NCBI GenBank assembly: GCA_001775995.1
Contig: MEZH01000007.1
Coordinates: 46,934 to 110,933, forward strand
Length of the DNA: 64,000 nt
Direction: 5' to 3'
Origin: Candidatus Bathyarchaeota archaeon RBG_16_48_13
Lineage (GTDB): Archaea > Thermoproteota > Bathyarchaeia > RBG-16-48-13
Positions 2,560 to 60,140 of the stretch are shown one piece after another. The notes below the pieces were generated by a model that worked only from the letters and a program-made list of their open reading frames with translations, made no database searches and was not told where the DNA came from. Made by a program: the position numbers and the translations under genes. How positions within the stretch are numbered: the first letter of the stretch is position 1; every line of letters starts with the position of its first letter.

Positions 2560-3708
2560 CTATTTTCTCTTTCTTGGAAGGGCGCTCAAGAGTCCCAAGG
2601 CATCATAGACAACCAGCGACAGGAAGCTCAGGTTCCAAGAGCTGGTTGCGTCGTAGATCAATCCAAAGATGGGCGAGCTAGCCATAATCCCGATGTTGAC
2701 CATCATCATTGAGATGGCCAACCCTACACTCGTGGCCTCAGGACCCGCGATCTCCGCTACCTCCGCCATCGCAGCGGGCGGAACAAGGTTGTTGAAGAAG
2801 CCGATGATGAGCATGAAGATAAGGAACAGAGAAAGGGGGACATAGGGAACTAAAGGGTAGAGGACAGCCAGCGCCAGCAACGGTAGGGCATAGACTATCT
2901 TCCTTGGCCGCACGCGATCTGCCAGCCAGCCGCCGAGGGGGCTGATGGGGATAGCCATAAACATCGTCAAGCTGACAAGAAAACTGCCCACAGGTACGAG
3001 GACGCCTCTGGCAACGTTGAGATAGGTTGGACCCCAGTTCAGAATGCAGTTGCCCGGAGAACCAACCCCCATGTTGGCCATGGGCAAGAGCCACAGGAAG
3101 GGATTGGACAAAGCCCTCTTCATCGAGAACCCAGGTCTATGAACTACTTTCCTATCGCTTGATAGAGCCAGGAACACCAGCGAGATGATTGCGAAGACCG
3201 AACTGAGCCACCAAACGATTCTCCAGCCGTAGCTCAGAGGAATAAGGGAGGAGAGGTTCATGCTGATCACGCTGCCTGCGGGATAGCAGGCCATGTATAG
3301 GCCCAACGCCAGACCCCTCTTCGCGGAGGGAGCAGAAAGAGAGATGATGGTGATAGCCGTCACGAGGGCAAAAGAAACGCCGACTCCTTCCACAGCTCTC
3401 CCGAAGAAGAGCAGATATGCATTTGGCGATAAGGCCTGCACAGCCGCTCCGATTATCATCAAAGCGATAGCTGCAATCCCCATTCTCTTAGTTCCATATC
3501 GGGATATCAATATCCCAGCTGGTATGGCGGTGACCACCACCGAGGCTCCCACCAAACCCATGAATAGACCCGCCAACGTGTACGAAAGGTCGAAATCAGC
3601 TATGAGCGCTTGAAGGTGAGAGGGAACCTTGAAAACCGCCAGAGCCGCTGAGAATGACATTATGAAGGAGACGAACATTGAGAGAAGAACGTCTTGGCGT
3701 TTTTCCAT
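2560..3708 (-). CDS. MFS transporter
   Basis: 382 aa with about 12 hydrophobic segments; MFS motif-A-like GILISRYGTKR and GGWLADRVRPRK. Confidence 0.85.
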   Translation of the reverse strand: MEKRQDVLLSMFVSFIMSFSAALAVFKVPSHLQALIADFDLSYTLAGLFMGLVGASVVVTAIPAGILISRYGTKRMGIAAIALMIIGAAVQALSPNAYLLFFGRAVEGVGVSFALVTAITIISLSAPSAKRGLALGLYMACYPAGSVISMNLSSLIPLSYGWRIVWWLSSVFAIISLVFLALSSDRKVVHRPGFSMKRALSNPFLWLLPMANMGVGSPGNCILNWGPTYLNVARGVLVPVGSFLVSLTMFMAIPISPLGGWLADRVRPRKIVYALPLLALAVLYPLVPYVPLSLFLIFMLIIGFFNNLVPPAAMAEVAEIAGPEATSVGLAISMMMVNIGIMASSPIFGLIYDATSSWNLSFLSLVVYDALGLLSALPRKRK

Positions 3709-17799: not shown

Positions 17800-18019
17800 T
17801 CCACAACACTCTGCATGGTTTTGACCTGCAAGCTCTGTTGACCAAGTCTGAGTTTTATAAGGTTAGTGCCGATCCGCCTCATTTGCCATCCCGATGGGGT
17901 TCAGCTGTTTTAGCTGAAGTCCCTCTGATCGCATAGTGCTAATTGACTTGATTTCAGCTGCAGATAGACAAATAATGTGAGTCACTGAATATGATATTGT
18001 TCAAGTGGGTTGGATCTTC

Positions 18020-18826
18020 ATGTCTGGCAAGCTTTCTTTGGATTTTGATATGCCTAAATCCATAGCGATGGGTGAAGAATTCGTAAGGGAACATGTCAAG
18101 AGTGCGGCAGTGGACGGAGTTGCCATTGGATTAAGCGGTGGCCTAGACTCGTCATTGCTCGCTGCCTTGTGCGTCAGGGCGGTGGGACCCAACAAAGTAC
18201 ACGGATTCATAATGCCTGTTCGTGGCATCACGCCTTCAGGCGATGTTCGGGACGCAAGGGAATTGTCCAGACTCCTCGGAATAGAACATGCTTACGTGGA
18301 GATCGGGAAGATCGTCAAGGCTTTCATGGAGGCCAACCCCCTCAAGGATACTAATGTCGGCATAGCTCGCGGAAATGTCATGGCTAGAACCCGAATGACC
18401 CTCCTCTACTACGTCGCCAACCTCAAAAACCTTCTTGTGGCGGGCAGCGGTGACCGTAGCGAGATCCTCATAGGCTACTTCACGAAATATGGCGACGGGG
18501 GGGCAGACATCTTCCCCCTGGGCAACCTGTACAAGACGCAGGTTCGGGAATTGGCAAAGTACCTAGAGTTGCCGTCATCCATAGTCAACAAGCCGAGCAG
18601 CCCAAGGTTTTGGAAAGGCCATATTGCGGAGAACGAGATAGGTCTAGGGTACGGGAAGGTGGATTTGATCCTCCATGGCCTTCTAGACCTTAACCTCCAA
18701 CCAAAAGATGTCGCTTCGAAGGCAGATGTCTCGTTGGACGACATCGTGAAGGTATTGAAGATGGTTCAGCACTCAGAGCACAAACGGATGATGCCTCCTC
18801 TCCCACCTCCCATAACGTTGATGTAG
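18020..18826 (+). CDS. nadE: NH3-dependent NAD+ synthetase
   Basis: IGLSGGLDSS, GNVMARTRM, GYFTKYGDGGAD..PLGNLYKTQV, KPSSPRFW, SEHKR. Confidence 0.92.
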   Translation: MSGKLSLDFDMPKSIAMGEEFVREHVKSAAVDGVAIGLSGGLDSSLLAALCVRAVGPNKVHGFIMPVRGITPSGDVRDARELSRLLGIEHAYVEIGKIVKAFMEANPLKDTNVGIARGNVMARTRMTLLYYVANLKNLLVAGSGDRSEILIGYFTKYGDGGADIFPLGNLYKTQVRELAKYLELPSSIVNKPSSPRFWKGHIAENEIGLGYGKVDLILHGLLDLNLQPKDVASKADVSLDDIVKVLKMVQHSEHKRMMPPLPPPITLM

Positions 18827-47350: not shown

Positions 47351-47450
47351 GGGCTGGTCGTCTAGTCTGGTTAGGATATCCGCCTGACAGACCTTTTCTA
47401 GGTCCAAGAGACGCGGAAGGTCGCCGGTCCGAATCCGGCCCGGCCCACCA
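47351..47450 (+). tRNA. tRNA-Val(GAC) with 22-nt intron and encoded CCA
   Basis: Acceptor stem GGGCTGG/CCGGCCC, anticodon stem TCCGC/GCGGA, spliced loop CTGACAC, T-arm GCCGG-TCCGAAT-CCGGC. Confidence 0.9.
47389..47410 (+). other. tRNA-Val intron, probably at position 36/37
   Basis: BHB geometry: CCTG/CAAG central helix (one mismatch), bulges ACA and AGA, intron helix GACCT/AGGTC; a 37/38 junction gives the same mature sequence but no central helix. Confidence 0.7.
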
Positions 47451-47662
47451 CTGTTAGGGCATAGAACCTCAATAATCTTACATGCCTAGACGAGACACTC
47501 CAAGCGCGCGCCACACCAATTGCTCGCTCATAGCCTAGCTTTAGATCTTGCCGGGAGTCTTGTTCATTGTTTTGACTTAAATTCACGTTGACCGGATTAT
47601 ACAGCAAACGTTTGGTCGAGATGCCAGGATTCATGTTCCGTAGGAATCCCTGAGGTGAAGAA

Positions 47663-48433
47663 ATGAGCTTTCAAGAGAGGATCAGACAGAAGAAGGGCAA
47701 AGAAAAGATCATAATGCTGACGGCCTACGACTTTCAGATGGCGAGAATACTGGCTCGGACTGGTATCGACTTGATCCTTGTGGGCGATAGTCTAGCGATG
47801 GTAGTGCAAGGCCGAAGCGACACCAAGAGCGTCACGATGTCTGACATGATATATCACATAAAGGCGGCAGCAAGAGGAGCTGAGAACACCCCCATCATCG
47901 GGGACTTGCCAAGGGACAGCTGCAACTCTGTGGAGGATGGCTTACGGAATGCCAAGCTGTTCATCAAGGCGGGTGCACATGGAGTCAAGATTGAGGGGAA
48001 GAAAGCGGAGGTCATAAAAGCCCTGGCAAGCGGGGGAATCCCGGTTATGGGCCATATTGGAATGCTTCCCCAGACTGCAGAATCCTACCACGTGAAGGGA
48101 AAAAAGCCCGAAGAGGCCGAACAGATCCTCCAAGACGCTCGAGCCCTGGACAGGCTCGGCGTGTTTTCCATGGTGCTGGAGTGCATCCCCGAAGACCTGG
48201 CAAAGATGATAACAGAAACCGTCGATGTGCCGACGATAGGCATCGGAGCGGGCAAATACTGTGACGGACAGGTGCTGGTCACGAATGACATGCTCGGTTT
48301 CGACGATGACTTCAAACCAAAATACGTGAAAGTATACGCCAACTTCAACAAAGCGACAAAGGATGCTGTTTCCAAGTTCATCGAAGAAGTCTTCGAAGGC
48401 AAGTTTCCCGACGATGAACACACCTACCATTGA
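47663..48433 (+). CDS. panB: 3-methyl-2-oxobutanoate hydroxymethyltransferase
   Basis: MLTAYD, ILVGDSL, GDLP, VKIEG, PVMGHIG.LPQ, VLECIP, TIGIGAG..CDGQVLV..DMLG. Confidence 0.93.
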   Translation: MSFQERIRQKKGKEKIIMLTAYDFQMARILARTGIDLILVGDSLAMVVQGRSDTKSVTMSDMIYHIKAAARGAENTPIIGDLPRDSCNSVEDGLRNAKLFIKAGAHGVKIEGKKAEVIKALASGGIPVMGHIGMLPQTAESYHVKGKKPEEAEQILQDARALDRLGVFSMVLECIPEDLAKMITETVDVPTIGIGAGKYCDGQVLVTNDMLGFDDDFKPKYVKVYANFNKATKDAVSKFIEEVFEGKFPDDEHTYH

Positions 48434-48891
48434 ATCCTAGAGAAAACGTTGGCGCCGCGAGCGCTCAACATGTCGTAGAGTCGCTCTCTGTCACCTCTCG
48501 AGGACGATCTATCGGTCGTAGGGTTAAGCGGTCAACGGGTTACACGATGTCCCTGATCTACATGAGCCTGCGATTCGCATATCTGCCCCAGCGTGAGGCT
48601 GGTCGCCCTCAATACCTTCAAACCAGAGACTTCGCCTTGATCGTGCGCCGGATAGGACTTGCACATTAGGTGCGGATAACGCGTGACCTGCCACGCATTT
48701 GATTTCAGTGTGATTAGGCACAGGAAGAAATGATTCACTCAAATGTTGAACTGAATACCTCCAGACCTGCTACATCATTTTGGCTTCTTGCCAGCAAATT
48801 GACGTCAAAACCGGTCCCGACGCCTTGGTTTGCGCTTCCTAGCCAATCCTAGCTACAGGTTTGCTGCAGACTCAGACCCTTCTGGGGTTTT

Positions 48892-48910
48892 AATCCGGCC
48901 CGGCCTACTA
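48892..48910 (+). repeat. Direct repeat of the tRNA-Val 3' end (attR-like)
   Basis: AATCCGGCCCGGCCtACtA versus tRNA 47432-47450 AATCCGGCCCGGCCCACCA: 14 nt exact, 17 of 19 overall. Confidence 0.7.
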
Positions 48911-49081
48911 TTCTTTCTGAAGGCGAGTTCTGGTGATTATCCTATACCCTTAGAAAGTTGATGACTTTTTCATCGGCTGTGGCCCTTAGGATCCCGTCCT
49001 TCATGGGCTTCCACTTGTAAGTCCCATTGTTTGATCAGGATTCGACTTGGTTTCTAGTTCTTGCCAATAATATCGGGTTAT

Positions 49082-49385
49082 AGGAGAAGGGATAACAAGG
49101 GATATCTAGGTGGGACAATCGTGGATAATCAGCGGTGATGATTGAGTCAATAGAGGATACCAAGGGATATTGAAGGACAATCAGTACCAAAGGGTCTTGC
49201 TGGTTTCTTGATAGCTGGCTTCGCTCAGACAACTAGTGTGTTGGAGCCTCTGCCAGGTGGTTGAGGCTCATCTGCCGAGGAATCGCAACCAACACTAAGC
49301 CCTGGATATCTTGGACTACGCTCATTGTCCCTTATGATAGCCATTCTGCGCGTCCCTGTTATCCCGCATTATCCCTTACTCCTCT
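49082..49385. repeat. Non-coding quasi-palindrome with convergent phased GGGAYA arrays
   Basis: Seven plus-strand NGGAYA copies (49089-49179) and four minus-strand copies (49326-49375); perfect 8-9-bp cross-matches; nested apical hairpins. Confidence 0.7.
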
Positions 49386-49719
49386 TATGCCATCGGCCAA
49401 CTTGGAGATGCGGCTTTCTCAATTTCCATTCTGCTTGTGGGATGCGAACTGAGCCGAATGGAGAATACATAGATGGGATTCGAGTTTCGTTCCAGCGCCT
49501 TATGTGCTTTCCGCGGAATAATTTCACCCGTTGGGAGTATTCTGGAAATTCTGAAAACGGGGAAGGCGGGACCTGAGGATCTTGACAGGCCCAATCAATC
49601 TGGCGTTAGAGGCATCCATTAATCTAGTAGTTCAAGATGATCGGGGAGACATGAGAAGAATCGAATCAGCACTCAACTTTCTAATTAGCTCCAGGAATGA
49701 CACCTGCTCCAAGACCCAC

Positions 49720-49905
49720 CTATATGACTCTGAGTCTCTGGATGCTGTGAGTTTGCCAAGAATAGTGGCGGAGCTTCTTGGAGGCACCATATCCGCAAGC
49801 GGAGCATTTCTTCTCTCTCTTGTGGTAGGAATGCCTCCCACACCGTCTACAGCGGATGTGCACAGTCTGGTTTTTCTTTCCGAAAGATGGCGTTCCCTTG
49901 CCCAT
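49720..49905 (-). CDS. rpl37e: 50S ribosomal protein L37e
   Basis: [32 protein letters not shown]. Confidence 0.95.
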
Positions 49906-49914
49906 GATCTAGAT

Positions 49915-50142
49915 TCACCTTGCAGGAGGCGATATTATTATTACGTTGTCCCCTCTGACGATTATGACGCCGAGCTTCTGGATGTTTTCAGTGTTCGAGA
50001 CATCCTCAGCGTCTTCCAAGACCAAGTTCATGTGTTGGTCGAAGGATTGAAGTTTCCCTCTGAGACTCTTTCCACCCTTCAGCCTTACCAGTACCTGTTT
50101 GCTGAGGCTTTCGTTCAGTATCTTTGTCGCCGCTTCGGTCAA
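49915..50142 (-). CDS. Sm-like (Lsm/SmAP1) protein
   Basis: VLVRLKGG..LRGKL.SFDQHMNLVLEDAE, IIVRGDNVI.ISP; conserved position upstream of rpl37e. Confidence 0.93.
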   Translation of the reverse strand: MTEAATKILNESLSKQVLVRLKGGKSLRGKLQSFDQHMNLVLEDAEDVSNTENIQKLGVIIVRGDNVIIISPPAR

Positions 50143-50249
50143 ATTCGATCAACCTTTGTTGGAGCTTGAACACATCCTGAACATCTATTGGGTGACCCCT
50201 TAATGATTTAAATCTATCGCGCTCCCTAAGGAGATGCCGGGAAGACAGT

Positions 50250-50747
50250 TTGAAGGGCAGACGCAGGCGCCTCCTTAGCAGCAAGGAGATAAGAGACTTC
50301 TTAACAGATATCTCTTCAGCACTTGGAAGCGAATACGATGACCTCTTTGACCGGATCTCCAAGATCGAATTGATCGAGACCGACGAAGGTGACATATATT
50401 ACTTCGACGAGAGACCCGTTTTGATCAAGATCGGCGAGAAGCGTATACCCACACTCCTCTTCGATGAACTCCTGAACCGTCTGCCATGGGTTTTTGTCGA
50501 TCGAGGCGCTATCCCGCATGTGTGCAACGGCGCCGATGTCATGGCGCCAGGGATCAAGGAGATAAAAGGATTCTTCAAGGAGGGGGCATTGGTAGTCGTT
50601 GGCGACTCAGAACATAAGAAAGCCTTGGCCGTGGGTCTGGCTGTGCTTGGGGATGGCGATGCCCGGCAAACAAGAAAAGGGAAAGTGGTGAAAAATCTTC
50701 ACTACGTCGGAGATCCCATTTGGGGTAGGATCAGAGAAACTCAATAA
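50250..50747 (+). CDS. PUA-domain RNA-binding protein (DUF1947/Tma20-like)
   Basis: PTL, VFVDRGAIPHVCNGADVMAPGI, KALAVG, KGKVVKNLHYVGD. Confidence 0.88.
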   Translation: MKGRRRRLLSSKEIRDFLTDISSALGSEYDDLFDRISKIELIETDEGDIYYFDERPVLIKIGEKRIPTLLFDELLNRLPWVFVDRGAIPHVCNGADVMAPGIKEIKGFFKEGALVVVGDSEHKKALAVGLAVLGDGDARQTRKGKVVKNLHYVGDPIWGRIRETQ

Positions 50748-50793
50748 TATCGAATTTTGAAACAAAGCATAATGGCGTATTGGTGGCGGTTGA

Positions 50794-51150
50794 TTGGGTT
50801 TAGTGGAAAGGTTCAAGCGCAAGAAAGAGGAGGAACCTTGTGAAACCACAGCACTCAGACATGCCTTGATATATGTCAAAGCTCTATCCATACAAGATCT
50901 CTCTGATCTGAATCATATAAAGGCAGAATTCAACCAAGGAAATATCATAATATTGAAGGTTACACCCCTCGCCAAGAAGAATTTGGATGATGTCAAGAAG
51001 GCGATATCATATTTGACGAGTTGCGTAAGGGAGGCGGGTGGAGATATCGCTCGCTTGGGAGAAGAGAGGGTATTAATCACCCCACCGAGCGTCAAGATCT
51101 GGAAGAAAGATAGCCAGCCTCGAGAATCCTCCGGATCTATTTCAATCTAA
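50794..51150 (+). CDS. sepF: Cell division protein SepF (DUF552)
   Basis: GNIIILKVTPL, GGDIARLGEERVLITP. Confidence 0.8.
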   Translation: MGLVERFKRKKEEEPCETTALRHALIYVKALSIQDLSDLNHIKAEFNQGNIIILKVTPLAKKNLDDVKKAISYLTSCVREAGGDIARLGEERVLITPPSVKIWKKDSQPRESSGSISI

Positions 51151-53056
51151 TTGTCTCCAGATTCTGTGGTGCAATGGCATTTATCTTCAGCACCTTCTTG
51201 AAGGTGTTGGCCACGCCCAAGCATTTCTTGCTCTCTCCATGATTGACTATTATTAGGTCCGGATGGGGCATTATCTTTCTAGCATAACCGAAGATTTGAT
51301 TACGATCACTGTGACCGCTGAAGCCCTCAACTGCATCCACCCCGCATTCCACTTTAAAAGCCTCCGTTCTACCCTCATTGTTGAGCATATTGAAATCTCG
51401 ATTTCCTCTGAGAAGGCGCCGACCTGTTGTGCCTTCAATCTGATAGGAGACGAAGATGACAGTGTTCAATGGGCTTGGGGCCAACATCTTGAACCATTCT
51501 ATCGAAGGGCCGCCCTCGAGCATACCAGAAGTGGCTAGGGTTATGCTTGGACTTGACCCGTCGATCTGAGCTCTGGCATTTGAGCTCTCTATGACAGTGA
51601 AGTAGTCAGACTGGAATGGATTTATGCCTTCCTTTATTATCCTGTCTCTCACCTCCCTAGAAAGGTATTCAGGATATGCTGTATGTATCGCAGTTGCTTC
51701 TGAGATCATGCCTTCAATATAGACTGGAACTTCCCTCATGAGACCCTGCCTCATATAGCTATCAAGCACAAGCATGATCTCCTGCGCCCTGCCTACCGCC
51801 GGAACAGGGATAAGGACTCGACCGCCGCCTTCAATTGTCTTATTCACTATGAAGGCGAGCTTCTCCTCAACCTCCTTTCTGGATGGCATTATGTCTTCCG
51901 GTGCGCCGTAGGTGCTTTCAGTAATCAGGGTTTCAATTCTTGGAAAAGTCATGACGGCCGGTTCGAGGAGCATTGTGTGACCGAATTTCAGGTCTCCCGT
52001 GTAGACGATATTGTGCAAGCCTTCACCTATATGAAGATGAACTATGGATGATCCCAGGATATGCCCTGCGTTATGAAGAGTCAACCTCATGTCGGGGGAT
52101 ATGTCGGTGACCGTGCCGTACTTGAGCGGGATCGTGTGGAGGACGGTCTCCCTCACGTCCTTCTGATCGTAGGGAGTCTGACGGCCACTCTTAGTGAGCA
52201 CATCGAGGCTGTCAAGTTGAAGGAGGGTCATTAGGCTCGATGTAGGCTCTGAGCAATATACTGGACCATCAAACCCGTACTTGTAGAGAAAAGGCAGGAG
52301 TCCACAATGGTCCAGGTGGGCATGAGATATTATTACAGCGTCTAGAGTGTCAAGATCGAACTCGTCGATGTTAAACTTGGGGAAAGCATCAGAGGAGTCC
52401 ATATAGGCAGGGTTCATACCACAATCGAGGAGGACTGAGCTTTCTTTGGTTCGGACCAGCATGGATGATCTACCGACCTCCCTGAAACCGCCTAAGGTAG
52501 TAAGCAGGACCTCATTGCTCCTAAGGAAAGTTGGCCTGAAGATCCTCTCGCCAACGTCTCTCATGATCCTTTCGCGTTCTTTGGCTTCAGAATGCAAGTA
52601 GTGGCGGATGTGAGCTATTATCATGGATGGAAGAGGTGGTGACCGAAGGACCCTTGGTCTCCATCTAGTGGCACTTACTATCTTCTGGAGGGTAATACCA
52701 TCTTTGCCGATGACAAGACCTGGTTTCTTCGCCTCTATGACAACTTCGCCCACGGTTGGATCGAATGTCACATTTGTAACCTCAGCCTCAGGCGGAACCA
52801 GTTGCTTGACAGCGTTCTCGGTTTCTCTCTCCTCGAGACGAACAGAAGGGTCGGACCTTATTACAACTCTCTTCCTTATTCGATTAACCATATCGGTAAC
52901 GATGTAGCTCTGTTCGAAGAGAATTTCAGGTCTCTTGGCATAAATAGCCAGTTTTGGACCCTCAAACTCGATCCTGGTGATCTCAGCTTCCTTGGGAACA
53001 TATCCGAGGATGGCTTCACGTATTCTAGTTTGTATCTCGTTAAATGAAGTCCCCAC
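51137..53056 (-). CDS. Beta-CASP ribonuclease aCPSF1 with KH domains
   Basis: IEFEGP, KH region, LGGFREVGRS, SHAHLDH, AGHILGS, YTGD, ESTYG, GRAQE, FSGHSD, NHGE. Confidence 0.94.
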   Translation of the reverse strand: MGTSFNEIQTRIREAILGYVPKEAEITRIEFEGPKLAIYAKRPEILFEQSYIVTDMVNRIRKRVVIRSDPSVRLEERETENAVKQLVPPEAEVTNVTFDPTVGEVVIEAKKPGLVIGKDGITLQKIVSATRWRPRVLRSPPLPSMIIAHIRHYLHSEAKERERIMRDVGERIFRPTFLRSNEVLLTTLGGFREVGRSSMLVRTKESSVLLDCGMNPAYMDSSDAFPKFNIDEFDLDTLDAVIISHAHLDHCGLLPFLYKYGFDGPVYCSEPTSSLMTLLQLDSLDVLTKSGRQTPYDQKDVRETVLHTIPLKYGTVTDISPDMRLTLHNAGHILGSSIVHLHIGEGLHNIVYTGDLKFGHTMLLEPAVMTFPRIETLITESTYGAPEDIMPSRKEVEEKLAFIVNKTIEGGGRVLIPVPAVGRAQEIMLVLDSYMRQGLMREVPVYIEGMISEATAIHTAYPEYLSREVRDRIIKEGINPFQSDYFTVIESSNARAQIDGSSPSITLATSGMLEGGPSIEWFKMLAPSPLNTVIFVSYQIEGTTGRRLLRGNRDFNMLNNEGRTEAFKVECGVDAVEGFSGHSDRNQIFGYARKIMPHPDLIIVNHGESKKCLGVANTFKKVLKINAIAPQNLETIRLK

Positions 53057-53098
53057 TAGACTAGCTCCTTTTTTTACAAAAGCAATTGTGAAGACGAC

Positions 53099-53734
53099 TT
53101 ACTGAGCGAGTCTCTTCTTCTCTTCATCCGACAACTCGTGATAGCCTTCTTCTGTAATTATCGCCACATCGAAACTATCCCCGCTGGCACTGTCCCTCTT
53201 CATAGAGGAGTGGATTGCTCTTACAATCAGATTCACACCATCATCTATAGACAGGTTTTCCCGGTATTCGCTCTCGAGAAGTCCGTAGGCTATAGGCGAA
53301 CCAGAACCAGTTGAAACACATTTCTCTTCAGTCACGGAACCGAATGGATCTAGCGCATAAATGTGCGATCCACTTTCGTCGACACCAGCTACGAGTGCTT
53401 GAAGGGAGAGGGGAATGTACCGAGACGAGAACAGGAGATTAGCAACCAATCTAGCTGCTGACTTGACTGGCATGGCCCTGCCTTTCTCGAGATAGTAGAG
53501 CTGGGCGTTAGCCTTAAGAGTCTCCACGACAGCCTGAGCGTCTGCCACGGTCCCGGCAATAGTCATAGCCAATTTGTCATAGATTTTGTATACCTTCTTG
53601 GCTTTCTTGTGGGCCACAAAATATCCCATGGTAGCTCTCGTATCTGTAGCAAGGACCACCCCATTACTGCAAACTATTCCTATGGTAGTGGTTCCCTTAA
53701 GTATCATGTCTGCTGGTTTGGTTTCATGAATCAT
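53099..53734 (-). CDS. psmB: Proteasome beta subunit, catalytic
   Basis: KGTTTIG (propeptide cleavage and Thr1), DTRAT.G, AG.VADAQ, TGSGSP.AYG, RDSASG; SD GGAGG. Confidence 0.92.
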   Translation of the reverse strand: MIHETKPADMILKGTTTIGIVCSNGVVLATDTRATMGYFVAHKKAKKVYKIYDKLAMTIAGTVADAQAVVETLKANAQLYYLEKGRAMPVKSAARLVANLLFSSRYIPLSLQALVAGVDESGSHIYALDPFGSVTEEKCVSTGSGSPIAYGLLESEYRENLSIDDGVNLIVRAIHSSMKRDSASGDSFDVAIITEEGYHELSDEEKKRLAQ

Positions 53735-53913
53735 GTAATAGCATCCTCCGAGAAGAAAAACCCATGAAAGCAATTCTTTGCTCGAAGTGGAATACTAGAT
53801 ATAACAACTACGATGTGAGACAGCAGATGCTTAAAAATATTTCGAGTGGAGAGCACAATAGGGATACAACATTTATAGAACGGGCACTAGGAAAGAGGGT
53901 TAGTGACGTCCAA

Positions 53914-54972
53914 GTGGCTCAAAAAGTCCATCGAATGGAACTTCCCCGAGAAGTTCTGATCGGAAGCAACATACTTCCTTTGGTTGGCCCGGCCCTAAAG
54001 AAACTGGGGTTCGCATCAACAGCTGTGACATTCACAGGTTCCATAACAAGGAAGGTCGCAGCCGAACCCGTAGCTGATTCTATGAGGGAAAACGGCATAG
54101 GCACGACTTTTGAGCTGGTAGGTGGGTCCTCAACAGAGGATTTGACCCTAGCTCAAGATGCGATAAGAGAGATCAGGCCTGAAGTTGCTCTGGCGGTGGG
54201 TGGCGGACGAGTTATTGACATAACGAAATTGGCATCCTTCAATGAGAACATTCCATTTATCAGTATACCCACGACCGCTTCTCACGACGGAATAGCCAGT
54301 CCTTGGGCCTCTATCAAGGGCTTGGAAAAGCCTTTTTCCATAAGAGCTCAGGCGCCTCTCGCTATAATTGCAGATATCGCTAAGATCAATGAGGCACCCT
54401 ACAGATTTACGGAAAGCGGATGCGGAGACATCATATCAAAATACACTGCAGTGAGAGACTGGAGATTAGTCCACAAGCTTAGGGACGAGTACTACGGAGA
54501 CTACGCCGCCAATCTTGCTCTTATGAGCGCCAAACTGATCATGAAAAACACCGACATCATTAGGAGAAATAATGAGGAGGGCGTTCAAATCGTCCTCGAA
54601 GCCCTCATTAGCTGCGGAGTAGCTATGAGCATAGCCGGAAGTAGCAGACCGTGCAGTGGCTCAGAACATCTCTTCAGTCACGCCCTCGATATTGCAGCGT
54701 CCAGACCGGCTCTTCACGGAGAACAGTGTGGGGTCGGAACGATCATGATGGCTTACCTCTACGGTGCGGATTGGAAGATGATAAGGGACTCGTTGAAAGC
54801 TTTGGGTGCTCCGACTAATGCTAAGGAGTTGCAGACAGAACCTGAATTTATAATACAGGCTTTGACTCAAGCTCATCTGATTAGGCGCGAGAGATTTACC
54901 ATCCTGGGGGAAAATGGCCTCTCGAGGGATGCAGCTGAGAAATTGGCTAGGGCGACAGGAGTCATAGAATAA
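53914..54972 (+). CDS. egsA: NAD(P)-dependent glycerol-1-phosphate dehydrogenase
   Basis: ELPREV, VGGGRVID..K, PTTASHDGIASP, SGCGD, GSSRPCSGSEHLFSHALD, LHGEQCG. Confidence 0.93.
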   Translation: MAQKVHRMELPREVLIGSNILPLVGPALKKLGFASTAVTFTGSITRKVAAEPVADSMRENGIGTTFELVGGSSTEDLTLAQDAIREIRPEVALAVGGGRVIDITKLASFNENIPFISIPTTASHDGIASPWASIKGLEKPFSIRAQAPLAIIADIAKINEAPYRFTESGCGDIISKYTAVRDWRLVHKLRDEYYGDYAANLALMSAKLIMKNTDIIRRNNEEGVQIVLEALISCGVAMSIAGSSRPCSGSEHLFSHALDIAASRPALHGEQCGVGTIMMAYLYGADWKMIRDSLKALGAPTNAKELQTEPEFIIQALTQAHLIRRERFTILGENGLSRDAAEKLARATGVIE

Positions 54973-55434
54973 ATGGCTGAGCAGAAGCGAATTATCACCA
55001 TAGTTGGGGAGAGACAAGCAAGACCGAAATTCGCCTTCTTGTACAATGGCCCCAGCCGAGCATGTAAAGACTGCAATTATTTTAAAGTCTGTCAGGAGAA
55101 ACTGGATCAAGGCAGCGTATATGAGATTGTTAAAGTCAGGGATAAGGAAATTCCCTGCAATATCCACGACGACAAAGCCAGGGTGGTAGAGGTCGTGGAG
55201 GCCGATCTTTCTGTGGCTGTTAACCGAAGGGAAACCTTTGAGGGGGCAACAGTAACAATAAAGTCCTCGGATTGCGACAACAAGAGTTGCCCCAGTTTCG
55301 GTATATGCATGCCCCTGGGTCTCCAAAAGAAGGGAAAATACAGGATCGTTGGTGTCTTAGGACCTATTTCTTGCCCTCTTCGGCGGCCTTTGGTTGAGGT
55401 TCGGGCTCGGCGGGTTCCAAAGCCTTCTTCTTAA
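54973..55434 (+). CDS. UPF0179 family protein
   Basis: ITIVG..A.P.F.F.Y.G....C..C.....C..KL..G..YEI.KVR....C..H; conserved neighbor of egsA. Confidence 0.8.
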   Translation: MAEQKRIITIVGERQARPKFAFLYNGPSRACKDCNYFKVCQEKLDQGSVYEIVKVRDKEIPCNIHDDKARVVEVVEADLSVAVNRRETFEGATVTIKSSDCDNKSCPSFGICMPLGLQKKGKYRIVGVLGPISCPLRRPLVEVRARRVPKPSS

Positions 55435-56125
55435 AGGACTCAATAAAGGACAATTCTTCTACCTCAGGGAAGAATCTTTGGATATCCATGTTTATACCAC
55501 GTTTGGCTAATTGAAGCCCTTCGAGAAAGAAAACCTCTTCAGGTAAGTGCACCTTTACGTTCTTGCCCTCGACATTCAGGTCCAGCTTCTCAGTAGCAAT
55601 AGCGGGTATGCGTCTCTCTATGAGCGCTTTGATCTTATCGGTTTTCTTCTTCAAAACCTTCTTCACAGTGACCTGGTAGAGCAAATTCTTTCCAGCAAGG
55701 GAAGGGTTAAAGTCGACCTGAACTCTGCCTGCGCCGACGCTTCTGATGACGGCCGGTTTCCCGTCCATCTCCAGCTTCATCCCAGGGAACGGCGCAACCC
55801 GCTCGTCCTTGAATTTTCTGAACGGTACCATCTTGACTTTGCTTGGATCTCTGTTTCCAAATCCTTTATCTGGAGGTATCTCGATCGTAGCTGTCTCCCC
55901 TTCTTTCAAGCCTTTCAGGCCTTCGTCAAGGCCTTTAAGGACCCAACCTTCACCAACAACTACAAGGTCGGGGTTATATACGGAACCTTCCTTATGTAGG
56001 CCTTCCTTCTTCGCCACCTCTTCCAAAGTGGTGGAGAACGTTTCGCCAGTTTCTTTCACCTTACCCATGTAATCGATGAATATGAAATCGCCCTTCTTCG
56101 TCATTTCTTCCTTCTTTTCGGACAC
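55364..56125 (-). CDS. FKBP-type peptidyl-prolyl isomerase (long archaeal type)
   Basis: KGDFI.IDY.G, FSTT.EE.AK..G, GLDE.L, PPDKGFG.RD, VDFNPSLAGK.L.Y. Confidence 0.9.
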   Translation of the reverse strand: MSEKKEEMTKKGDFIFIDYMGKVKETGETFSTTLEEVAKKEGLHKEGSVYNPDLVVVGEGWVLKGLDEGLKGLKEGETATIEIPPDKGFGNRDPSKVKMVPFRKFKDERVAPFPGMKLEMDGKPAVIRSVGAGRVQVDFNPSLAGKNLLYQVTVKKVLKKKTDKIKALIERRIPAIATEKLDLNVEGKNVKVHLPEEVFFLEGLQLAKRGINMDIQRFFPEVEELSFIESFKKKALEPAEPEPQPKAAEEGKK

Positions 56126-56355
56126 TAAAATATCCTCCGACTAACTTCTTAGCATGGTTATTTGGAGTTGCCTTTAACCTTTATCTTTCTTGCGACCTGA
56201 TATGCATTCAAGAATCATCAGACTATATGGGTATTATTCGTCAGCTCAGGGTAAATTTCCTTGGAATTTTCGATGTTGAGAGCCTCTTTAAGTTTAAATA
56301 AAGTGTCTGGCAACTTGGTTTTATGATCGGCACAAATGCGGTTGATCACTGGAAA

Positions 56356-56451
56356 GCGGTCGTAGTCTAGTTTGGTCTAGGACGTCAGCCTGCCAACCGG
56401 ATCTAGGGCGGAGCGCTGGTGACCCGGGTTCAAATCCCGGCGACCGCACCA
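56356..56451 (+). tRNA. tRNA-Gly(GCC) with canonical 37/38 intron (56396-56413) and encoded CCA
   Basis: Acceptor GCGGTCG/CGACCGC, loop CTGCCAC after splicing, BHB helix CTGC/GCGG, T-arm CCGGG-TTCAAAT-CCCGG. Confidence 0.92.
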
Positions 56452-56476
56452 CCAATCTCTAGGGAGCATAGCATCG

Positions 56477-56896
56477 TTGAAAGTCGTCACCCGAGATTTG
56501 GAACTTCACACAAAGGGCGAGTCAGACATTTTGAATATCACTGAAGAAATTGCAAATGAAATTGAATCATCAAAAATCGGGAACGGCGTCGTCACCATAT
56601 TTGTTAAGGGTTCCACCGCTGCCCTGACGACAATCGAATATGAACCTGGCCTCAAGCAGGATTTCCCAGCGTTTTTGGAGAGGATAGCTCCACGGAATAT
56701 CGAATACCAACATGAGCGGACTTGGCATGATGGTAATGGCCACTCTCACGTGAGGGCTTCCCTTATTGGACCGAGCCTCACTGTCCCTATTGTGGACGGT
56801 AGACTCACCTTGGGGGTGTGGCAGCAGATAGTTGTCTTGGAGTTTGACACCCGAAGCCGCGTGAGAACCTTGGTGACTATGATAATGGGTGAATGA
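56477..56896 (+). CDS. YjbQ/UPF0047 family protein
   Basis: GSTAALTTIEYEPGL, Y.HE..WHDGNGHSHVRASLIGPS, L.LG.WQQI...EFD. Confidence 0.9.
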   Translation: MKVVTRDLELHTKGESDILNITEEIANEIESSKIGNGVVTIFVKGSTAALTTIEYEPGLKQDFPAFLERIAPRNIEYQHERTWHDGNGHSHVRASLIGPSLTVPIVDGRLTLGVWQQIVVLEFDTRSRVRTLVTMIMGE

Positions 56897-56952
56897 GAGC
56901 AACCCTTAAGTTACTTTCCCATTCCTAAATGAGAAATATTGCTCTGCTTAGA

Positions 56953-57051
56953 GCGGCTGTGGTCTAGTCTGGTCTAGGACTTCAAGTCCCTCAAGGGGCG
57001 AGCAAGCCTTCCAAGCTGACTACCCGGGCTCAAATCCCGGCAGCCGCACCA
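56953..57051 (+). tRNA. tRNA-Gly(TCC) with non-canonical 29/30 intron (56985-57005) and encoded CCA
   Basis: Acceptor GCGGCTG/CAGCCGC; removing 21 nt restores TCAGC-CTTCCAA-GCTGA; BHB bulges CAA and AAG around the GTCCC/GGGGC hairpin; T-loop CTCAAAT. Confidence 0.88.
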
Positions 57052-57056
57052 GACAC

Positions 57057-58046
57057 GTGGTCTCAGATTCAAAAAGGACGGGCGCAACACAAGTGGAAAC
57101 CTACAGCCCCGACGATCTCAGGGAAAAGTACAAGGAAACAAAGTGGATCTCGCCGTACCAGAAGATAGTGGCTGTCCATGATGAGAAATTAAGCCAAATA
57201 GAAGTCCACGAGTATCACGCCAGGGGGAAATGCGTTGGTGGGGCTGCTTGGGAAACATATCATTATCCCAGGGTCAGTCCTCTCGTCCTGGAGGCTCGAA
57301 GAGAAGGCCCAAAGAACATCTTTCGAGTCAAGACAGGGTCAACCAACTTGCATCTGGTTCCTGGAATAGCAGGTGCTGGCATCGAACAGGCTTGCGTCGA
57401 CGGAGAAGAGATAAAACTTACCTACGCCGGTCTGGCTGGAGGGGGCATAGCTGCAACAATATGCAGGGGTCTAGCTTCAGGCGTAAAGAGGATAGAGATC
57501 AAGGAAAGAGGTGGAGGGAACCAACTTGGCAGAGCTACTCTCATCCTCCCGCTGAAGCACAGATTGGTCGTTGGGATAGACGATACAGACAGCCCTTCAG
57601 GAGGCGCCACTTGGTCCCTCTCGAACGAATTGGGCTACTTTCTCGAGAAACATAGGCAGGCGGACTACCTTAACCACACCATCGTCCAGCTCTACACAGG
57701 GAACCCCTGGAAGACCACCAATGGCGTCAGCATAGCTTTGACCTTCGCCGTTTTGCCGCAGAAAAAAGAAAAGTTGATCCAAATCATAAAACGCCAACTG
57801 AGGCAGAATTCCCAATCATCGGAAACGGCCATCGCCCTATTTGACGGGATAAAGCCGCCGGACTCCATCAAGGTATTCGCTCTTCACGCTAAGACGCGCC
57901 TCATTGAGATGGAGGAAGCCCAAACAACGGCCCGAGGAGAAAATGTGTCTCTTGTTCCAATCACTGGTCAGCGTGGGGTCATAGGAGCTTTGGCAGCTAT
58001 TGGGTACGCCGATGAGCCTGATGAAGCCGTAAAGATCATAAAATGA
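57057..58046 (+). CDS. Methanogenesis marker protein 11-like (TiaS N-terminal-like, DUF1743)
   Basis: WISPYQKI, EVHEYH, SPLVLEARREG, YAGLAGGG, GGG..LGRAT, GIDDTD...GATW, NP.KTTN, GQRGVIGALAA.G. Confidence 0.75.
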   Translation: MVSDSKRTGATQVETYSPDDLREKYKETKWISPYQKIVAVHDEKLSQIEVHEYHARGKCVGGAAWETYHYPRVSPLVLEARREGPKNIFRVKTGSTNLHLVPGIAGAGIEQACVDGEEIKLTYAGLAGGGIAATICRGLASGVKRIEIKERGGGNQLGRATLILPLKHRLVVGIDDTDSPSGGATWSLSNELGYFLEKHRQADYLNHTIVQLYTGNPWKTTNGVSIALTFAVLPQKKEKLIQIIKRQLRQNSQSSETAIALFDGIKPPDSIKVFALHAKTRLIEMEEAQTTARGENVSLVPITGQRGVIGALAAIGYADEPDEAVKIIK

Positions 58047-58061
58047 TAACAGGCGATCACC

Positions 58062-59141
58062 ATGGACCCTACTCTCCTTAAAGTGAGTTTACTATGCTAT
58101 GGCGCACGATCCCCGCCAGATTTTGACAAAGGAAGATGTGGGGGTGCGGGTCCGGCTGGTGGAGGATATCTCGTTTTGGATGGCACCGCGACGCCGTCCA
58201 CGAACGTGGCGTTTCAGGGCCATCATGTGAGGAATTCCCCCTTTTCCATTGAGAAAGTTGGAGAAGAATGCTTGCTTTGCCAAGATAACGCCCCGTCGAT
58301 TGCGGTTCGGTTAGTCGAAAGACCGGCTTTTCTCGACAACAGAACCTCTGAGGGTATTCCTGTTTGGAAAATCGCGTCTTTTCACGGGAGCGATGCAATA
58401 GGCGTTACGATAGACAAGAACTGCTATTACTGGAGAAACAAACAGCAGTGCAAATTCTGCGCCATAGAGCAGAAAATCAAGACCCACTCCGGAAAGAGCC
58501 TTGCTATCAAGACACCTCAGCAAGTGAGTGACGCGATTGAGGCAGCGGTCGAATCAGGGTTCTGCCACCACGTGACCCTTACCACAGGCATCGCTGAGAC
58601 ACCTGACAGAGGAGCTACCCCCTATATACCAATACTTAGAGAAATTAGAAGGAACCTAAAAACTCCAGTTCATGTTCAGCTCGAGCCTCCTCAGGATCTT
58701 GAGATGCTGGGGAGACTATACGAAGAAGGAGCGGACACCGTTGGGCTCCACATTGAGAGCCTTGACGAGAAGGTCAAGAGAAGAGTCTGCCCGGGAAAGC
58801 CGCCAGATAGAGTATATTTTCGGGCTTGGAAATATGCTGAAAAGACTTTTGGCCAAAATCAGGTCAGCACGTTCATTCTGGTCGGACTTGGTGAGGACCC
58901 AAAGCTGACAGATAGAAGATTGGAGAATGTGACATCGGCCGGCGCGATTCCATTTGTAACGCCCTTTAGACCCCTTCTAGGGACAGAATTGGAAAATGAG
59001 GATCCACCAAATCCTTCGTATCTTCTGGGAATCACGGAAAAGGCCGTAGTCAAAATGAAAGACAGTGGTATGAAACCCAATGAGAACAGAGCGGGTTGTG
59101 TGAGGTGCGGAGCCTGCTCCGCCATAATGGAAGTTTTTTGA
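58062..59141 (+). CDS. Radical SAM protein, MSMEG_0568-like
   Basis: Non-canonical CX8CX2C (CYYWRNKQQCKFC), TLTTG, VQLEPP, GLHIES, ILVGLGE, PFRPL.GT, C-terminal AGCVRCGACS. Confidence 0.7.
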   Translation: MDPTLLKVSLLCYGARSPPDFDKGRCGGAGPAGGGYLVLDGTATPSTNVAFQGHHVRNSPFSIEKVGEECLLCQDNAPSIAVRLVERPAFLDNRTSEGIPVWKIASFHGSDAIGVTIDKNCYYWRNKQQCKFCAIEQKIKTHSGKSLAIKTPQQVSDAIEAAVESGFCHHVTLTTGIAETPDRGATPYIPILREIRRNLKTPVHVQLEPPQDLEMLGRLYEEGADTVGLHIESLDEKVKRRVCPGKPPDRVYFRAWKYAEKTFGQNQVSTFILVGLGEDPKLTDRRLENVTSAGAIPFVTPFRPLLGTELENEDPPNPSYLLGITEKAVVKMKDSGMKPNENRAGCVRCGACSAIMEVF

Positions 59142-59165
59142 GAACTACCTTGAGGCTTAAGGGTA

Positions 59166-59999
59166 TTGGACATTCTCAAGAGAATTCAAGAACTCCAGCG
59201 AAATAGTCATCGAATAGGGTTTGGGGTCAGGGTTGAAGACAGGACTCACCCAGACAAGATCATAGAGGTCGCGGAAAAAGTGGAGTCCATGCATTTTGGG
59301 AGGGTCATCTATGTGGGACAAATGTGTTCATCGCCAATGAGGGATGCAATCTATACCGAGGAACCTGAGAGAATGCTATTAGATCTCCTGTGTATGGGGG
59401 ATATCGATGCCGCGGTTAGGGGGACTGCAAAGGCATCCGTTATTTTGAGATTAATAAAAGAAAAACTTGGGCAACGGTCTTTCTTTAGGATTGCTCTCCT
59501 AGAAACAAGTATGGGTCATCAGTTCCTCTTAGCACCAGTGGGGATTGATGAAGGTAGCTCGATAAATGAGAGACTGACGATTATCACGTCTGGGGCTCAA
59601 CTGCTGAAGCAGCTTGGGGTCGAACCTAGGATTGGTGTACTTTCAGGTGGCAGGATGGAGGACATAGGTAGAAGTCCCGATATTGACAAGACTATAGAAG
59701 AGAGCCAGGAGCTGACGAGCAAAGCGCGGGAACAACTGCCTTACATAATAGAGCATTATGGAATACTGGTCGAAGACGCCATACAGGCGAGAGCAAATCT
59801 TATCCTTGCACCTAACGGCATGATTGGTAACTTCGTCTACCGGACGCTCATCCATCTGGGTTCTGGCAAGTCCCATGGTGCTATCTACGTCGGCATTAAC
59901 GAAATACTGGTAGACACGTCACGATCTGCTCCCCCAGAGGAATATTTACATGCCATTCGCCTTGCAAATGCGCTGACCACGATAGCAAAAAGAATCTGA
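59166..59999 (+). CDS. mtxX: Methanogenesis marker Mmp4/MtxX family protein
   Basis: DAAVRGT, LLAPVGIDEG, GVLSGGR.ED.GR...IDKTI, GIL.E.A, AP.G..GN..YR, VDTSR. Confidence 0.82.
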   Translation: MDILKRIQELQRNSHRIGFGVRVEDRTHPDKIIEVAEKVESMHFGRVIYVGQMCSSPMRDAIYTEEPERMLLDLLCMGDIDAAVRGTAKASVILRLIKEKLGQRSFFRIALLETSMGHQFLLAPVGIDEGSSINERLTIITSGAQLLKQLGVEPRIGVLSGGRMEDIGRSPDIDKTIEESQELTSKAREQLPYIIEHYGILVEDAIQARANLILAPNGMIGNFVYRTLIHLGSGKSHGAIYVGINEILVDTSRSAPPEEYLHAIRLANALTTIAKRI

Positions 60000-60043
60000 A
60001 AGAAAGCCATTTAAGGAACCAGCTCCGAGACCTTACAACTTGA

Positions 60044-60140
60044 GGGCCGGTAGCTCAGCCTGGTATGAGCGCTGCGTTGGCATCGCAGAGACCCATTGTA
60101 GGGCTGTAAGTCACGGGTCCGAATCCCGCCCGGTCCACCA
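60044..60140 (+). tRNA. tRNA-Ala(GGC) with non-canonical 45/46 intron (60091-60109) and encoded CCA
   Basis: G3:U70 identity pair, CTGCG-TTGGCAT-CGCAG; BHB helix GCAG/CTGT with bulges AGA and AAG; splicing gives variable loop AGGTC; T-loop TCCGAAT. Confidence 0.9.

Follow-up and report, generated by a model that had tools for sequence, protein, structure and literature searches.

According to a review of the T-loop, no tRNA modification is conserved more universally than pseudouridine-55; the same review regards U55 as conserved and names no exception among the archaea (PMC7912444). The closest described departure comes from a bacterium, Lactiplantibacillus plantarum, in which C55 is encoded for every tRNA-Gly isoacceptor but GCC; in vitro, the wild-type tRNA-Gly transcript with C55 is glycylated as well as its C55U mutant (J Biochem 2023, PMC10464925). 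Our literature search brought up no description of C55 or C54 in the tRNA genes of archaea. Here we analyze a stretch of 64,000 nucleotides (the window) from Candidatus Bathyarchaeota archaeon RBG_16_48_13 (assembly GCA_001775995.1, our genome G000; contig MEZH01000007.1, positions 46,934 to 110,933, in our numbering G000:C7:46934-110933), in which three of four tRNA genes encode C instead of U at position 54 or 55. As in L. plantarum, C55 is found in otherwise normal elongators, and among the Gly isoacceptors UCC and CCC deviate, with GCC remaining canonical. In the bacterium, however, one amino-acid family is affected, whereas in the archaeon at least five families (Val, Ala, Pro, Thr and Gly) and about a quarter of the tRNA set are involved, with C54 and A54 in addition.

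Two described systems convert a C that is encoded in a tRNA gene. In Methanopyrus kandleri, C8 is edited to U8 in about 30 tRNAs, dependent on CDAT8, a fusion of cytidine deaminase and THUMP domain (PMC3695527). In tRNA-Tyr of Vibrio cholerae, C32 is converted to pseudouridine by TrcP, a deaminase fused to a pseudouridine synthase (PMC9553926). Both reactions use domains of the cytidine-deaminase (CDA) fold (PMC3695527, PMC9553926). Similar to M. kandleri, G000 encodes C in numerous tRNA genes (8 of 33) where U is near-universal, but the position is 54 or 55 rather than 8, and no deaminase-THUMP or CDA-fold gene was found. TrcP provides a conceptual model for the route from genomic C to pseudouridine; in contrast to TrcP, Pus10 of G000 has only the usual zinc, THUMP and catalytic domains. 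A T-loop with a base other than U at position 54 is known from the eukaryotic initiator tRNA (A54-A58; reviewed in PMC7912444), and tRNA-Thr(CGU) of G000 also has A54. In the eukaryotic case, two purines pair in a specialised initiator, whereas in G000 C54 is found in an elongator tRNA-Gly.

The four tRNA genes of the window, all read directly from the DNA, are listed here with window positions and scores against the Rfam tRNA model.

47351..47450, + strand: tRNA-Val(GAC) with encoded CCA, anticodon parsed, 48.7 bits (from the whole-genome Rfam search, match G000:C7:94284-94380)

56356..56451, + strand: tRNA-Gly(GCC) with the canonical T-loop TTCAAAT, 56.9 bits, which serves as internal control

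56953..57051, + strand: tRNA-Gly(UCC), 39.1 bits

60044..60140, + strand: tRNA-Ala(GGC) with G3:U70 and an intron in the variable region, 45.7 bits

All four exceed the gathering score of 29 bits of Rfam RF00005, and all four contain the encoded CCA, a 7-bp acceptor stem, G53-C61, C56, A58 and G18-G19. Standard cloverleaves are restored once the exons are joined. The intron of tRNA-Val(GAC) comprises 22 nt after position 37, that of tRNA-Gly(GCC) 18 nt in the anticodon loop, and that of tRNA-Gly(UCC) 21 nt within the 5' strand of the anticodon stem (about 29/30); the exon structure of the latter was derived by comparison with the intron-less Gly(UCC) gene of a relative (G017). The T-arms consist of a 5-bp stem and a 7-nt loop. 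In tRNA-Val(GAC) the sequence is GCCGG/TCCGAAT/CCGGC, with T54 at 47428 and C55 at 47429; in tRNA-Gly(UCC) it is CCGGG/CTCAAAT/CCCGG, with C54 at 57029 and T55 at 57030; and in tRNA-Ala(GGC) it is ACGGG/TCCGAAT/CCCGC, with C55 at 60119 and the single mismatch of these stems, A49(60113)-C65(60129). Consequently, Val and Ala (C55) and Gly-UCC (C54) depart from the consensus U54 and U55. To judge from tRNA-Gly of L. plantarum, U54/U55 would be a consensus feature and not a functional requirement. An alternative register or intron placement that would give U at 54/55 was ruled out, since the T-arms are uninterrupted. AT-rich boxes are located 22-37 nt upstream of the three deviant genes.

These readings agree with the original prediction, which was made from the letters of the window and had assigned C55 to Val and Ala, C54 to Gly(UCC) and a canonical loop to Gly(GCC). 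The intact stems, the G3:U70 pair and the CCA, which it had taken as arguments against pseudogenes, are all present, with Rfam scores above 29 bits. It had also pointed to the A49-C65 mismatch of tRNA-Ala as one that C-to-U conversion would repair. The mismatch exists, but C65-to-U editing was rejected as unnecessary, since the paralogue Ala(UGC) has G49:C65, and a change of G49 to A49 would explain the mismatch more simply. A Watson-Crick pair, C49:G65, is found here in the Ala(GGC) orthologues of two relatives (G010 and G017).

The assembly of G000 comprises 848,615 bp in 16 contigs and is 75% complete. With our own intron-tolerant scan and Rfam matches, 33 tRNA genes were identified, all on contigs C1, C4 and C7, and anticodons were assigned for 31 of them. 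C55 is encoded by seven genes on three contigs (Val-GAC, Val-UAC, Ala-GGC, Ala-UGC, Pro-CGG, Thr-GGU and Gly-CCC), C54 by one (Gly-UCC) and A54 by one (Thr-CGU), so that about 27% of the genes found deviate altogether. Those outside the window are the following.

C7:240172-240267: tRNA-Val(UAC), C55

C1:83312-83444: tRNA-Ala(UGC), C55

C1:36249-36338: tRNA-Pro(CGG), C55

C1:50883-51019: tRNA-Thr(GGU), C55

G000:C4:121837-121928, - strand: tRNA-Gly(CCC), C55

G000:C1:55035-55111, - strand: tRNA-Thr(CGU), A54

The three of four genes in the window are a sample of this genome-wide state. The C55 arm pattern SSGGTCCRARTCCSS has seven matches in G000 and none for the reversed control, and the count is above chance; among GC-rich T-arms, seven with C55 face seven canonical ones, with 0-1 matches for reversed controls. 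All eight C54/C55 arms of G000 are on the most GC-rich T-stems. Position 8 is T in every readable tRNA gene, an early intron obscuring two. Three A-C mismatches are found in tRNA stems of G000, namely A49-C65 of Ala-GGC, C50-A64 in the T-stem of tRNA-Ile(GAU) (G000:C7:314211-314350, - strand) and A30-C40 of Thr-CGU.

The original prediction had left room for the odd genes being untranscribed duplicates of canonical copies. Among the 33 tRNA genes of the 75%-complete G000, no canonical copy with the same anticodon was found for any deviant gene. With no second same-anticodon gene found, codons such as GUY, GCY and ACY therefore rely on C55 tRNAs. Canonical paralogues exist in G000 for other isoacceptors (Ala-CGC, Gly-GCC, Pro-UGG and Thr-UGU). 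A gene-encoded C55 in an otherwise canonical, normal decoder was found in six cases: Val-GAC, Val-UAC, Ala-GGC, Ala-UGC, Thr-GGU and Pro-CGG.

It is very unlikely that the deviant genes are redundant or in decay as pseudogenes, or that drift has fixed slightly harmful mutations in them, with the canonical copies located in the unassembled 25% of the genome. The small genome (0.85 Mb assembled, 75% complete) would fit such decay, as would the additional defects of some genes (C33 and no CCA in Gly-CCC; A54, A30-C40 and no CCA in Thr-CGU; A49-C65 in Ala-GGC). However, the three deviant genes of the window have intact stems, identity elements (G3:U70), CCA and upstream AT-rich boxes and score above the Rfam threshold. 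Moreover, deviant genes are the only ones found for essential G34 anticodons, and orthologues in other genomes share their state, as do genes of a complete genome that has no duplicates of them.

Three genes outside the window have further peculiarities. In Gly-CCC, which combines C55 with the lack of an encoded CCA, C33 replaces the near-universal U33 in any intron register, and the Gly-CCC orthologues of G005, G016 and G190 have U33; the G000 gene may be decaying or may have a second odd position. A Gly(GCC)-like gene (G000:C4:85439-85556, - strand, Rfam 37.8 bits) is a second GCC-type gene besides the canonical copy in the window. Its acceptor stem (GGGGAGG) is unusual, position 33 is C, and A31 is mismatched with G39; the gene contains an intron of 41 nt, lacks CCA and is possibly a pseudogene. 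The intron-less Thr-CGU has the T-loop ATCGAAG (A54, G60) together with the A30-C40 mismatch and no CCA, and still scores 56 bits.

Inspection of positions 54 and 55 in this and sister genomes, along the lines of a check that the original prediction had suggested, revealed the variant to be genome-wide and recurrent in relatives. Thirty relatives were sampled, 22 from the same order and 8 from the same class, and a pattern scan found at least one C55 arm in 11 of them. C55 is present in the Thr-GGU orthologues of G011, G014, G020 and G022, in the Gly-CCC orthologues of G005 and G016 as well as a Gly gene of G008 whose anticodon is probably CCC, and in the Ala-GGC orthologue of G010. Further C55 families in the relatives are Glu-UUC (four genomes), Ile-GAU, Arg, Thr-UGU, Thr-CGU, Gly-GCC and Gly-UCC. 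C54 was found in four relatives, in Tyr-GUA (G006 and G010), Ala-UGC (G009) and Thr-UGU plus Ala-GGC (G017). Across the phylum, 76 of the 401 sampled genomes have at least one C55 arm, and in one family of the same class the proportion is 20 of 25. In at least six genomes from at least two genera of that family, the Val-GAC T-arm has C55 and matches that of G000 except at position 65. Another family retains C55 in Pro-UGG and Pro-CGG. Scans with SSGG-type patterns give lower bounds, since the Leu arms of G190 (GTGGG) escape the pattern. The idea that C55 is confined to SSGG-type T-stems is true in G000 and fails in G190 because of these Leu stems.

Canonical orthologues are found side by side with the C55 forms. 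Val-GAC is canonical (TTC) in G006, G010 and G016 of the same order and in G024 and G030 of the same class, and the Val-UAC T-arm of G016 differs from that of G000 solely by U55. Therefore, U and C interchange repeatedly. G18-G19 are retained alongside C55. For purines at position 55, scans of 151 genomes of the class gave matches at or below the level of the reversed control, and most of these are not tRNAs. Since purines are seen at 55 only at chance level, a pyrimidine constraint persists. The sole exception with a purine at 55 is tRNA-Cys(GCA) of G025 (L150, G025:C11 about 3590-3670, - strand), with G55 in the T-loop TGCAAAT. Its D-loop lacks G18-G19, so this is a different kind of alternative elbow; G025 has two such arms.

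An artefact of sequencing, assembly or binning has a practically negligible probability. G000 is a fragmented metagenome-type assembly of 16 contigs, which would be the setting for such errors, but the identical variant is seen in seven genes on three contigs and in orthologues of many independently assembled genomes, single-contig ones included.

The genome G190 from the same phylum consists of a single contig of 2,191,724 bp and is 99% complete. G349, G367 and G421 are single-contig genomes too, and all four probably come from isolates. C55 is encoded in 12 of its 45 tRNA matches (for example C1:77582-77666, 556185-556269 and 1547385-1547470). The set comprises all five Leu and all three Thr tRNAs, Ile-GAU, one CAU tRNA, Arg-UCU and Gly-CCC, and every one of the 12 anticodons is present once. 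Because this genome is complete and its C55 tRNAs have no duplicates, it lifts the caveat of incompleteness from the general claim that C55 tRNAs are working decoders in the phylum.

The enzymes acting on the T-loop and possible deaminases were searched for in G000. Pus10 is full-length (361 bits, open reading frame of 443 aa); it contains only the domains Pus10_THUMP_arc and Pus10_C and aligns to 3-401 of the 402 positions of the TIGR01213 model. Cbf5 was matched in two pieces, and Trm56 is present. TrmY was not found, and the same search also missed TrmY in the control genome of Sulfolobus acidocaldarius. The Pus10/TrmY/Cbf5 status that the original prediction had wished to see is thus two present and one not found. 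For P. furiosus tRNA-Asp, a U55C transcript was unmodified by Cbf5, and pseudouridine formation by Pus10 was dramatically reduced (PMC1616971). C55 tRNAs therefore have no pseudouridine-55 unless they are edited.

Editing could proceed by deamination of C55 and C54 to U after transcription, perhaps followed by conversion to pseudouridine, through an undescribed enzyme similar to CDAT8 or TrcP. Several observations are as such an activity would need or predict: the deviant base is nearly always C and a purine never exceeds chance, C and U alternate freely among orthologues as expected if both yield the same RNA, the three stem A-C mismatches are also repairable by C-to-U changes, Pus10 and Cbf5 are available to complete a route from C via U to pseudouridine, and tRNA C-to-U editing has precedents (PMC3695527, PMC9553926). 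We nevertheless consider it unlikely. No match to a CDA-fold deaminase (PF00383, PF14437) was found in the 75%-complete G000. THUMP domains in G000 are limited to ThiI, Pus10 and a stand-alone protein of 177 aa. No fusion of a deaminase with THUMP, as proposed in the original prediction, or with a pseudouridine synthase was found in this genome, and Pus10 has no extra domain. The 177-aa THUMP protein was dismissed as an editing candidate, having no deaminase domain and being too short for one.

The complete genomes G190, with its 12 C55 tRNAs, and G349, with at least five, likewise gave no match to PF00383 or PF14437. Among the 30 relatives, the presence of a deaminase does not track C55: G005, G006, G008, G010 and G025 have C55 or C54 and no CDA gene, whereas in one family (f4) a CDA gene is present together with a single C54 tRNA (Ala-UGC in G009) and not one C55 arm. 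The CDA genes of the relatives are single-domain and resemble ComEB and dCMP deaminases. In G022, a ComEB-like deaminase gene is located about 2 kb from a C55 tRNA-Glu gene (G022:C137:15797-15811 and 17815-18168). This proximity is probably a coincidence, since other genomes with C55 tRNAs have no deaminase. Furthermore, changes from U to C are the most frequent substitutions and A-C is the mismatch that is tolerated best, so that neither the C variants nor the stem mismatches call for editing, and the published bacterial C55 transcript is charged in vitro like its C55U mutant. T-arm C-to-U editing is unsupported by gene content. Conversion of C55/C54 to U or pseudouridine by an enzyme outside the known cytidine-deaminase fold, as a phylum-wide T-loop editing system, is quite improbable as well; if true, such an enzyme would explain the free alternation of U and C among orthologues.

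The deviant tRNAs might also form a distinct subset, free of pseudouridine-55 or otherwise modified at C55/C56, with a role in regulation or stability. The retention of C55 in Val-GAC of at least six genomes and at least two genera of another family, its retention in Pro-UGG/CGG across a third family, the presence of C55 in all Leu and Thr tRNAs of G190 and the location of all eight C54/C55 arms of G000 on the most GC-rich T-stems are consistent with this idea. It is rather improbable all the same, as the carriers vary from genome to genome (Val, Ala, Pro, Thr and Gly in G000; Glu, Arg and Ile in relatives; Leu and Thr in G190) and orthologues in the same order are canonical. Such variation looks more like drift where constraint is relaxed than like a functional class that is conserved.

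The reading that we prefer, and consider probable, is that these are functional tRNAs that keep C55 (Val, Ala) or C54 (Gly-UCC) in a lineage with a relaxed pyrimidine requirement at 54/55. Most likely, C55/C54 is a tolerated natural variant rather than the sign of a new RNA-editing system, because the same variant is found in about a quarter of the G000 tRNAs and across the phylum. Of the two alternatives offered by the original prediction, the tolerant lineage has thus gained from the recurrence of the variant and from the sole genes per anticodon, and the C-to-U editing activity has lost, as no deaminase gene was found in G000, G190 or G349. The mature tRNAs most likely retain C, which the elbow would accommodate. 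Presumably, base stacking and the G19:C56 pair would still form the elbow, together with a T-stem rich in GC. C55 would lie opposite the retained G18 and could not become pseudouridine-55, and Pus10 would still act on the adjacent U, which is U54 in the C55 tRNAs and U55 in the C54 tRNA. With the requirement relaxed to a pyrimidine in this lineage and in much of its phylum, changes from U to C and from C to U would come and go among orthologues. The sole-anticodon status, the upstream boxes and the conservation in orthologues indirectly suggest that the C55/C54 tRNAs are expressed, processed and aminoacylated.

Several points weigh against a tolerated variant. U55 normally contacts G18 and makes the U-turn of the T-loop (PMC7912444), and a C at 55 cannot form the same hydrogen bonds. 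In S. islandicus, which belongs to the same phylum, 46 of 46 tRNAs have U54 and U55, and Pus10 is essential (PMC11077068). Hence, there is a strong constraint in at least one other archaeon. G000 resembles the canonical tRNAs of S. islandicus in the cloverleaf, G18-G19, G53-C61, C56 and A58, and it has genes for Pus10, Cbf5 and Trm56; it differs by C at 54/55 in 8 of 33 genes, where pseudouridine is impossible unless the base is edited. Canonical copies or a deaminase may lie in the missing part of the 75%-complete genome, and C-to-U changes would repair all three stem A-C mismatches (Ala 49-65, Ile 50-64 and Thr-CGU 30-40). Finally, the retention of C in the mature RNA is something that we infer from gene sequences only.

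A tRNA-modification gene adjoins one of the deviant genes in the window.

57057..58046, + strand: TiaS-like gene with tRNA-Ile2 agmatidine synthetase domains, 329 aa (Pfam TiaS_TCKD 1.6e-15, TiaS_FLD 2.1e-4)

Its open reading frame begins a few bases past tRNA-Gly(UCC) and does not encode a deaminase. G000 has two CAU tRNAs of the elongator type, and the product is likely the agmatidine synthetase that acts on one of them. Elsewhere in G000, tRNA-Trp(CCA) (G000:C1:48576-48735, - strand) is interrupted by a long intron that contains box C/D-like motifs and a CUCCAG segment in duplicate and thus recalls the guide-RNA intron known from tRNA-Trp of archaea.

Common finders under-call the tRNA genes of the window: ARAGORN reported two of the four and the filtered Rfam scan of the window three. 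The gene missed by the Rfam gathering scan of the 64-kb window is Val(GAC), which was lost through the speed filters. As a practical warning, tRNA finders and 'invariant base' filters under-call intron-rich tRNAs that bear C55.

The C55 variant itself is known from one published bacterial case. Added here are its scale in an archaeal phylum, where up to about a quarter of a tRNA set and entire amino-acid families are affected, and the accompanying C54 variant; the finding is not evidence for a new mechanism. Unless edited, a quarter of the tRNA genes of G000 are unable to receive pseudouridine-55, and many genomes of the phylum carry the variant. In G190, every Leu and Thr tRNA found has C55 and is barred from this modification under the same proviso. 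These archaea provide a natural system for asking what U55 and pseudouridine-55 contribute to the tRNA elbow, and why Pus10 is essential in some archaea.

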